A stretch of 32,000 nucleotides of DNA from Moraxella nasovis (GTDB lineage: Bacteria; Pseudomonadota; Gammaproteobacteria; Pseudomonadales; Moraxellaceae): assembly GCF_022701215.1 (NCBI RefSeq), contig NZ_CP089976.1, positions 1,080,001 through 1,112,000 of the forward strand. Direction: 5' to 3'. A model generated the notes under the pieces. The model did no database searches and was not told the origin of the DNA. It worked only from the letters and a program-made list of their open reading frames with translations. The position numbers and the translations under genes are program-made. Below, piece after piece: positions 10,440-11,591 of this stretch (within the stretch, counting starts at the first letter, position 1; each line of letters begins with the position of its first letter).

Positions 10440-11591
10440 ATGAATATTTTGCAGATGATTGAGCGGTGTGATGTTGAATGGCGAGAGCTTGGCAAGGCTT
10501 TAATTCGCACCAAAGGCACAAAAATTACCGCAGGGCAGATGAAGGAATTGCACAAAGAAGATGCTCCCATCAAAATCTTTGCAGGCGGTAAGACTTTTGC
10601 ATTGGTTGATTATGATGATATCCCACAAAAGGACATCAATCACAAACCATCAATTATTGTCAAATCTCGTGGTATTATTGAATTTGAATATTATGATAAG
10701 CCTTTTTCTCATAAAAATGAAATGTGGGCATATCACTCCCAAGATGAAAATGTTAATTTAAAATTTATTTATTACTTTTTAAAACAAAATGAACCACGCT
10801 TTCAAGCTATCGGTAGCAAAATGCAAATGCCACAAATTGCTACGCCTGATACCGATAAATTTAAAATCCCAATCCCACCCCTACCAATTCAAGAAAAAAT
10901 CGTACAGATTTTGGATCTGTTTACCAGCTTAGAAAAAGAGTTGCGGACAGAGCTTGCATTACGACAAAAGCAATATGCTTATTACCGTGAGCTATTATTA
11001 TCATTTGATAGTAATTCTCAACAATTCCCGACACACACACACACACTGGCGACGGTGGTTTGGAAAACTTTGGGGGAAGTGGTTGATTATATTCAACCTA
11101 GTAAATACTTGGTTCATTCTACGGATTATCATGATAGCTTTAAAATACCTGTTCTAACAGCGGGCAAGACATTTATTTTGGGCTATACCAATGAAACGGA
11201 CGGCATTTACCCAGCTTCTGATAATCCTGTGATTATTTTTGATGATTTTACCACTGCAAATAAATGGGTGAATTTTGATTTTAAAGCCAAATCGTCGGCA
11301 ATGAAAATCATTGTTCAAAAAGATAATCAAGTGTTATTAAGGTATGTGTATCATTGGTTAAATACTTTGCCAGATGAAGAAAGTACAGACCATAAACGCC
11401 AATGGATTAGTAATTTTTCCAAAAAACCAATCCCAATTCCACCCCTATCCACCCAAACCCAAATTGTCGCCATCTTGGATAAATTTGACACGCTGACCAA
11501 CTCTTTAACACACGGCTTACCACGAGAGATAGAATTACGGCGTAAGCAGTATGAATATTATCAAGAAAAGTTGCTTGCCTTTAAGCAATAA
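10440..11591 (+). CDS. hsdS: Type I R-M specificity subunit HsdS (copy 2, distinct TRD1, TRD2 shared with copy 1)
   Basis: 383-aa ORF. Central helix PIPPLPIQEKIVQILD..LRQKQYAYYRELLLSF and distal helix LRRKQYEYYQEKLLAF. SD aaggtgg upstream of the ATG. Confidence 0.9.
   Translation: MNILQMIERCDVEWRELGKALIRTKGTKITAGQMKELHKEDAPIKIFAGGKTFALVDYDDIPQKDINHKPSIIVKSRGIIEFEYYDKPFSHKNEMWAYHSQDENVNLKFIYYFLKQNEPRFQAIGSKMQMPQIATPDTDKFKIPIPPLPIQEKIVQILDLFTSLEKELRTELALRQKQYAYYRELLLSFDSNSQQFPTHTHTLATVVWKTLGEVVDYIQPSKYLVHSTDYHDSFKIPVLTAGKTFILGYTNETDGIYPASDNPVIIFDDFTTANKWVNFDFKAKSSAMKIIVQKDNQVLLRYVYHWLNTLPDEESTDHKRQWISNFSKKPIPIPPLSTQTQIVAILDKFDTLTNSLTHGLPREIELRRKQYEYYQEKLLAFKQ
11031..11046 (+). repeat. (AC)8 dinucleotide repeat inside the hsdS2 coding sequence (encodes THTHT)
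   Basis: Direct reading shows acacacacacacacac at 11031-11046, in frame, 22 nt upstream of the shared TRD2 block. Confidence 0.95.
11069..11488 (+). repeat. Right copy of the 420-bp near-identical direct repeat (TRD2 of hsdS2)
   Basis: See 3542-3961. Same orientation, 7527 bp apart. Confidence 0.9.

Follow-up and report, generated by a model that had tools for sequence, protein, structure and literature searches.

A perfect (AC)8 tract between the target recognition domains of a Moraxella Type I specificity gene: a plausible contingency repeat

This analysis concerns a dinucleotide repeat in hsdS2, the second specificity gene of a Type I restriction–modification (R-M) locus in Moraxella nasovis. 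The R-M island opens a window of 32,000 nucleotides (assembly GCF_022701215.1, contig NZ_CP089976.1, positions 1,080,001 to 1,112,000, forward strand); "the window" denotes this whole stretch, and positions are counted from its first letter. All genes of the island lie on the + strand. hsdS2 spans 10440-11591 and encodes a protein of 383 residues, identified by two Pfam Methylase_S domains and by PADLOC as Specificity_I. Its codons carry a perfect (AC)8 tract at 11031-11046 (+; 16 nt, ACACACACACACACAC), flanked by ...CCCG and TGG.... We regard this tract as a plausible contingency repeat, belonging to an already described class. The gene begins with ATG, just downstream of a Shine–Dalgarno (SD)-like sequence (AAAGGTGGTG), and its homologues align end to end. 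By these marks, hsdS2 looks like a working gene.

The architecture of HsdS2 was derived from homologue alignments and an AlphaFold model. The first target recognition domain (TRD1) comprises residues 1-147 (10440-10880) and is unlike the TRD1 of HsdS1. The central conserved helix, residues 148-187 (10881-11000), ends in ...RQKQYAYYRELLLSF and is also recognized in the alignment with the HsdS of EcoR124. It is followed by a coil linker of residues 188-206 (11001-11057), which leads to TRD2 and holds the repeat. The model, obtained with 20 homologues, had a mean predicted local distance difference test (pLDDT) score of 67.9, with TRD2 poorly modelled. The pLDDT values fell below 50 at residues 191-202, and the first TRD2 strand started at residue 207. 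The EcoR124 HsdS alignment (7bst_A, E = 4.2e-95) was gap-free in the helix regions. The connector from helix to TRD2 comprises four residues in EcoR124 (KEGE, between ...LLSF and VEWKTLGE) and sixteen in HsdS2 (DSNSQQFPTHTHTLAT), and the tract is located within the 12-residue insertion revealed by this alignment. Compared with hsdS1, the same linker carries a 39-nt insertion. Since the tract sits in a low-confidence coil, within an insertion absent from both EcoR124 HsdS and hsdS1, the encoded peptide is taken to be dispensable. The sequence, the model and the EcoR124 alignment together bear out an earlier note, made from the letters of the window alone, which had placed an in-frame (AC)8 repeat in hsdS2 where the central helix meets the shared TRD2.

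The TRD2 block at 11069-11500 (+) is common to hsdS1 (3542-3973), with 430 of 432 nt identical and thus two differing positions. The last upstream mismatch with hsdS1 falls at 11068, and the 22-nt distance between tract and block given in the earlier note is exact. The same note had seen the spot as a phase-variation site and a recombination boundary at once. This stands as a description, while nothing suggests a functional link between the two. Their closeness needs no special cause, because both fall in the inter-TRD connector. TRD exchange is normally expected to end in this connector, beside the W-K-x-LGEV flank of the TRD, and the boundary observed here coincides with that conserved flank. 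The idea that the tract helps to define the boundary found no supporting evidence and was dropped. At the protein level, TRD2 of HsdS2 matched the N-terminal TRD of EcoR124 (TRD1, 7bst_A residues 16-198) with 231 bits; because of this match, a GAA-like half-site is possible for TRD2. The best PADLOC profile for HsdS2 was a half-HsdS model of 208 positions, which covered residues 3-191.

Tandem Repeats Finder reported the tract at 11031-11046 with a period of 2, 8.0 copies and 100% matches. It is the sole dinucleotide repeat with at least five units in the 32-kb window, where the remaining simple repeats are seven-base runs of A or T only. Dinucleotide-preserving shuffles gave an expectation of 0.08 matches to (AC)8 with two mismatches allowed. 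A first-order Markov model predicted 1.3e-5 (AC)8 tracts per 32 kb, and 1.5e-4 tracts for any dinucleotide repeated eight times. Chance can be excluded: with expectations this small, the tract is a product of slippage expansion and not of base composition. The reading frame passes through the repeat as ACA CAC ACA CAC ACA C/TG (the slash marks the end of the tract), which gives T198-H-T-H-T202-L at codons 198-203 of 383. Under the window's codon usage, five Thr/His codons would produce this perfect repeat with P of about 0.002. Synonymous codons being available, this low value indicates that the repeat was kept at the DNA level, and that no peptide was selected.

The outcome of changes in repeat length was simulated. 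Alleles with (AC)7 or (AC)10 ran into a TGA stop at 11084-11086 (+), resulting in products of 214 and 216 residues, respectively. With (AC)6 or (AC)9, translation ended at a TAA at 11155-11157 (+), and the products had 237 and 239 residues. A change of three units, to (AC)5 or (AC)11, kept the frame. Each frameshifted product retained at least residues 1-197, which include TRD1 and the whole helix 148-187, and ended in an out-of-frame tail of 12 or 37 residues, the longer of which is hydrophobic. The claim that gain or loss of one unit would truncate HsdS2 after TRD1 and the central helix was thus confirmed in silico. An in-frame GTG at 11079 is preceded by GGGGGAA and overlaps the TGA at 11084 of the (AC)7/(AC)10 frame (GTGGTTGA). 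This overlap at 11079-11086 resembles translational coupling, and a separate TRD2 half could be produced in principle; the arrangement is probably incidental. Coupled re-initiation at GTG 11079 as a designed feature was rejected, the identical sequence being present in the repeat-free hsdS1, where it encodes the conserved LGEVV motif.

Simple sequence repeats (SSRs) in hsdS genes have been surveyed by Atack et al. 2020 (FASEB J, PMC7383803). That survey reports SSRs in 7.8% of 23,558 REBASE hsdS genes, invariably between both TRDs, with at least five units as the criterion for dinucleotides. AG[8] tracts are described there in Mycoplasma hsdS genes (Mycoplasmataceae AG[n]). The (AC)8 tract fits these rules: its unit is not a multiple of three, it exceeds five dinucleotide units, and it lies inside the hsdS open reading frame (ORF), between both TRD-coding regions. 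The change in (AC)n length also yielded full-length or truncated HsdS2 in silico, as the survey's product criterion describes. Neither an AC unit nor a Moraxella host is mentioned in the survey's text, as far as it was accessible.

To place the tract among its relatives, we scanned species-representative genomes and collected 80 loci with HsdS2 relatives, amounting to 1.40 Mb, to which the published SSR criteria were applied. Within the 99 nt that follow the '[QKR][QKR]Y.YYR' helix motif, 11 SSRs were found against 0.93 expected, an enrichment of about 12-fold (Poisson P = 5e-9). Eight of the 11 lie between two TRDs, 9-14 codons past the helix motif, as in the window. These inter-TRD repeats comprise G9 in M. 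canis, a Weeksellaceae metagenome-assembled genome (MAG), Phocoenobacter and a Flavobacterium, (AG)8 in a Parvimonas MAG, (GA)6 in an Acholeplasmataceae MAG, (AGAC)13 in a Peptoniphilaceae MAG and (CAGA)28 in a Treponemataceae MAG. Half of them (4/8) are out of frame in the deposited sequence. Dinucleotide repeats of at least six units are rare in the 1.40 Mb: only five were counted, two of them at the helix/TRD2 junction. By these counts, repeats with various unit types cluster strongly in the short connector that follows the central helix in this hsdS family.

A parallel comes from M. canis CCUG 8415A. Its hsdS2 (L002) contains at 10551-10559 an in-frame G9 encoding R-G-G-E, which aligns with the (AC)8 of the window. 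The G9 linker is homologous to the HsdS2 linker, a downstream TGGCGA motif is common to both, and the locus is syntenic (hsdM-hsdS1-fic-hsdR-hsdS2). Two related species thus have different repeats at one spot. As judged from the alignment, this shows an independent gain of repeats in orthologous Moraxella genes, and it makes the M. canis hsdS2 with G9 a candidate phase-variable hsdS.

The N-terminal 210 residues of HsdS2 served as query in an exhaustive HMMER search, which gave four half-length representatives of the same TRD1 type that end at repeat signatures just past the helix: P0404 (...FNKITGGG, 205 aa), P0487 (...RGGGDV, 206 aa), P0396 (...PPPKR, 236 aa) and P0482 (...NERTNERT..., 222 aa). 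We also observed 'extended' hsdS genes with three TRDs, in which the repeat lies between the second helix and the third TRD: Parvimonas (AG)8 (L063, 10833-10848), Peptoniphilaceae (AGAC)13 (L003, 3849-3900) and Treponemataceae (CAGA)28 (L078, 10566-10677). Their third TRD belongs to the family of the window's TRD2, and two of the three are out of frame. A separate observation was made in Riemerella anatipestifer (L058, 19274-19323), where a (TG)25 tract lies near the end of the locus retrieved, some 8 kb away from its hsdS homologue; read on the minus strand, it would give a long run of H-T.

Besides hsdS2, the island encodes the other Type I subunits. The methyltransferase gene hsdM (416-1969; Pfam N6_Mtase and HsdM_N) is followed by rhuM (1969-2961; PADLOC PDC-S05) and by hsdS1 (2958-4061), the first specificity gene, which Pfam and alignments show to share TRD2 with hsdS2 and to differ from it in TRD1. 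Domain and PADLOC scans placed fic (SoFic) at 4196-5317, a DUF3990/DUF3791 trio (PADLOC PDC-M13 A/B/C) at 8439-9357 and abiD (Abi_2) at 9405-10283. The hsdR gene (5346-8435) is of the EcoR124 type (Type IC), according to its Pfam domains EcoR124_C (6.5e-62), T1R_D3-like, HSDR_N and SWI2_SNF2. HsdM would serve both HsdS proteins, and hsdM-hsdS1-hsdR-hsdS2 is, from its domains, an EcoR124-like (Type IC) system. The island thus carries RhuM, SoFic, the DUF3990/DUF3791 trio and AbiD as passengers, while the syntenic M. canis locus (L002) has fic only; RhuM, the trio and AbiD are insertions into the R-M operon. Immediately upstream of abiD, the segment 9361-9397 is an 84% identical copy of the 5' end of hsdS2 (10439-10475), including the SD-like sequence (MNILQMVEGCEVK-stop). 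It looks like a scar, left when abiD was inserted into the start of hsdS2 or duplicated it.

hsdS1 has no SSR at its helix/TRD2 junction. It contains instead a 12-nt repeat at 3428-3461 (GCTGGAAGCTAC, 2.8 copies), which encodes LEAT-LEAT-LEA in the central helix, and because of this repeat the helix of HsdS1 is four residues longer than those of HsdS2 and EcoR124. In Type IC systems, the number of four-residue helix repeats sets the length of the recognition spacer (EcoR124I/II). By this rule and the helix lengths, the spacer of HsdS2 should be of the EcoR124I type and that of HsdS1 one base pair longer. M. catarrhalis homologues differ by a four-residue LRDE insertion at the LEAT site, with lengths of 380/384 and 392/396.

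The two 432-nt TRD2 copies, 3542-3973 and 11069-11500, are in direct orientation, and the conserved regions that flank them are just 65-80% identical. Given 430/432 identity within the block against these flanks, the direct repeat is probably the outcome of a gene conversion or a duplication in the recent past. If the two copies recombined, fic, hsdR and the passengers would be lost, in keeping with M. catarrhalis strains reported to have neither hsdS2 nor hsdR. The search for inverted repeat pairs within 2900-11700 yielded none, and no recombinase was found among the ORFs between hsdM and hsdS2 (RhuM, Fic, HsdR, DUF3990, DUF3791 and Abi_2). An inverting hsdS shufflon of the SpnD39III type was ruled out on these two grounds. 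The locus resembles such shufflons in having several hsdS genes with shared and distinct TRDs, but its copies are direct, not inverted.

Outside the island, a further repeat-rich gene was noticed at 23382-31544 on the - strand, running past 31544. This ORF of 2720 aa resembles a trimeric autotransporter adhesin and contains about seven essentially perfect tandem units of 1071 nt, with nested repeats of 180, 108, 36 and 18 nt. It is likely, from this structure, to be a size-variable surface protein.

The nearest experimental precedent for a switch at this junction is NgoAV of Neisseria gonorrhoeae FA1090. In this strain, hsdS1 has a poly-G tract at its end, and the resulting HsdS is naturally truncated to 208 aa and recognizes the symmetric site GCAN8TGC. 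When one G is lost, hsdS1 and hsdS2 become fused, and the site recognized is then the asymmetric GCAN7STCA. Activity is not abolished when one G is added, the truncated 208-aa subunit being the active natural form. Many gonococcal ngoAV loci are predicted in silico to encode no active methyltransferase. The precedent invoked in the earlier note is real: a change in poly-G length switches between truncated and fused full-length HsdS. As in hsdS2, a simple repeat lies between the TRD-coding halves and a frameshift leaves a half-length HsdS with TRD1 and the central helix. The truncated gonococcal form, like the frameshift products of HsdS2, retains one TRD and the complete dimerisation helix. 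The two cases differ in that NgoAV has poly-G and the truncated form in FA1090, whereas the deposited HsdS2 has (AC)8 and is full-length. The Moraxella locus, moreover, has an extra repeat-free hsdS1 that shares TRD2, so that a switch there, considered in silico only, would alter one of two specificities. NgoAV is of Type IC, and EcoR124-like as the Moraxella locus is.

Among other relatives, the archetypal Type IC systems EcoR124I/II and EcoDXXI share the EcoR124_C domain of HsdR with the locus and, in EcoR124, a central helix of the same length as that of HsdS2; the 2.8 LEAT copies of hsdS1 resemble their four-residue helix repeat. EcoR124 has only the KEGE connector, and no frameshifting repeat. 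Half-HsdS forms of EcoDXXI and EcoR124 have been made artificially. M. catarrhalis locus 1 (Mca25240ORF1547P) has two hsdS genes between which TRDs have moved, and some strains are without hsdS2 and hsdR, a loss that recombination between direct hsdS repeats would produce, as we infer. This locus and that of M. canis have the order hsdM-hsdS1-(fic)-hsdR-hsdS2 and TRDs common to the hsdS copies, as in the window. The window locus differs from both by its additional rhuM, PDC-M13 genes and abiD. The aligned linker of M. catarrhalis (SEHELAKVGFEWK) has no repeat, while that of M. canis has G9.

We propose the following mechanism, to which we give roughly an even chance: (AC)8 would act as a contingency repeat, by which HsdS2 alternates between a full-length subunit and a half-subunit of symmetric specificity, with HsdS1 persisting. 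The slippage-prone (AC)n would sit in a dispensable linker that joins the central coiled-coil helix to TRD2. With eight units, hsdS2 would be ON and give full-length HsdS2, combining its own TRD1 (TRD1b) with a TRD2 whose half-site is common to HsdS1. Replication slippage by one or two units in either direction would shift the frame, with a stop 12 or 37 codons further on, and leave TRD1b with the central helix intact. On the NgoAV precedent, two half-subunits of this kind may pair via their helices, join HsdM and recognize a symmetric site derived from the half-site of TRD1b. In this way the population would change one of its two Type I specificities, with HsdS1 still functioning. Three parts of this proposal are inferred: a useful mutation rate of the tract, expression of hsdS2 and activity of the truncated protein.

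Several observations weigh against it. The out-of-frame tails of 12 or 37 residues might impair folding of the truncated products. Expression of hsdS2 is put in question by the four passenger genes that separate it from hsdR and by the promoter-like site at 10369-10398, which did not rise above chance in the promoter scan. The deposited allele is in frame, as expected for a stable gene. Loops of two nucleotides are good substrates for mismatch repair. A Neisseria phasome study found no change in repeat number at any dinucleotide tract of comparable length and excluded these tracts for lack of evidence, so hypermutability of (AC)8 cannot be assumed. The search for length variants turned up none, no second genome of the species being present in any collection searched. 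In 90% clusters, every locus protein looked up and five housekeeping proteins were singletons. The pattern CAACAATTCCCG-N{0,30}-TGGCGACGGTGG, which accommodates 0-15 units, had no match in species-representative genomes, and its one metagenome match, in an unrelated high-GC contig, was set aside as chance.

An exact look-up of the HsdS2 sequence returned no record. The HsdS2 homologues, from M. canis, M. catarrhalis and M. nonliquefaciens, are 74% identical, and none of the best 120 full-length homologues had TH or other dipeptide-repeat signatures. The M. canis HsdR, sought as a route to the G9 of other M. canis strains, was absent among the 120 HsdR matches listed. The closest HsdR among these matches was 78% identical (L082), on a 5.1-kb contig without hsdS2. 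Hsp33 was closest to an M. caviae protein, at 78%.

The tract may instead be a passive microsatellite with no part in switching, the result of one past slippage expansion in a tolerant linker, now effectively stable, with hsdS2 an ordinary constitutive second specificity gene. This we consider possible, if rather unlikely, and with the same reserve its stability could be put down to the shortness of eight units together with mismatch repair of two-nucleotide loops. The in-frame allele, the invariant dinucleotide tracts of the Neisseria study and the lack of a variant allele in the flank-pattern scans of species-representative genomes and metagenomes are all in its favor. The linker should also tolerate insertions, given its predicted disorder and the variation of its length and sequence between homologues. 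A merely tolerant linker accounts poorly, however, for the recurrence of SSRs of several unit types at this junction in unrelated hosts, about 12-fold over background, for the out-of-frame state of half of the inter-TRD SSRs and for the two different SSRs acquired by orthologous Moraxella linkers. The tract is also uninterrupted, whereas a decaying neutral microsatellite would gather interruptions.

If the tract does slip, the outcome could be simple ON/OFF switching, in which a truncated HsdS2 is unstable or inactive and its specificity is lost and regained, with no new palindromic specificity. The foreign tails on the frameshift products, hydrophobic in the longer case, would agree with this, as would competition of a functional HsdS1 for the same HsdM and the many gonococcal ngoAV loci predicted to lack an active methyltransferase. 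Nevertheless, the 208-aa subunit of NgoAV is an active natural form, and the added G does not destroy activity. Truncated HsdS2 also keeps the complete helix 148-187, and half-length HsdS proteins with this type of TRD1 are frequent enough that PADLOC has a separate profile for them. On balance, we find pure ON/OFF switching decidedly unlikely. It is very improbable that the repeat arose as an artefact of sequencing or assembly, or that hsdS2 is a silent donor cassette whose frame is irrelevant. The position of hsdS2, downstream of hsdR and behind four inserted genes, and the near-identity of its TRD2 to the hsdS1 copy would suit a cassette. The ORF is nevertheless intact from ATG and SD-like sequence to stop and aligns end to end with its homologues, the hsdR-hsdS2 order recurs in M. 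canis and M. catarrhalis locus 1, the inverted repeats or recombinase of a shufflon cassette are missing, and nothing in the sequence suggests misassembly.

The toggle between full-length and half-length HsdS2 could also be part of a larger device, although we think this quite unlikely. The locus would then form a recombinase-free generator of specificities in three layers around one HsdM/HsdR pair, composed of the shared TRD2, the LEAT spacer and the (AC)n switch. In the first layer, gene conversion over 432 nt would keep the TRD2 of two co-expressed S subunits identical. In the second, the 12-nt LEAT helix repeat of hsdS1 could alter the spacer length, and in the third, (AC)n frameshifts in hsdS2 would yield a half-subunit with symmetric specificity. 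The independent gain of G9 in M. canis and (AC)8 here, within a linker insertion common to both, would on this proposal mean that the linker has evolved as a landing pad where contingency repeats arise, and is more than a tolerant spacer.

The (AC)8 tract adds to a class already described; it is an incremental finding and implies no new mechanism. The comparison of 80 diverse homologues gives independent backing to the published rule by which repeats in hsdS are located between the TRDs. To our knowledge, the only phasevarions established in Moraxella are of Type III (modM/N/O). If the tract switches, one of two co-existing specificities would be altered, rather than the whole system being turned on or off. 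Moraxella would thereby vary part of its methylome and of its restriction barrier stochastically, which could mean a Type I phasevarion in this genus.

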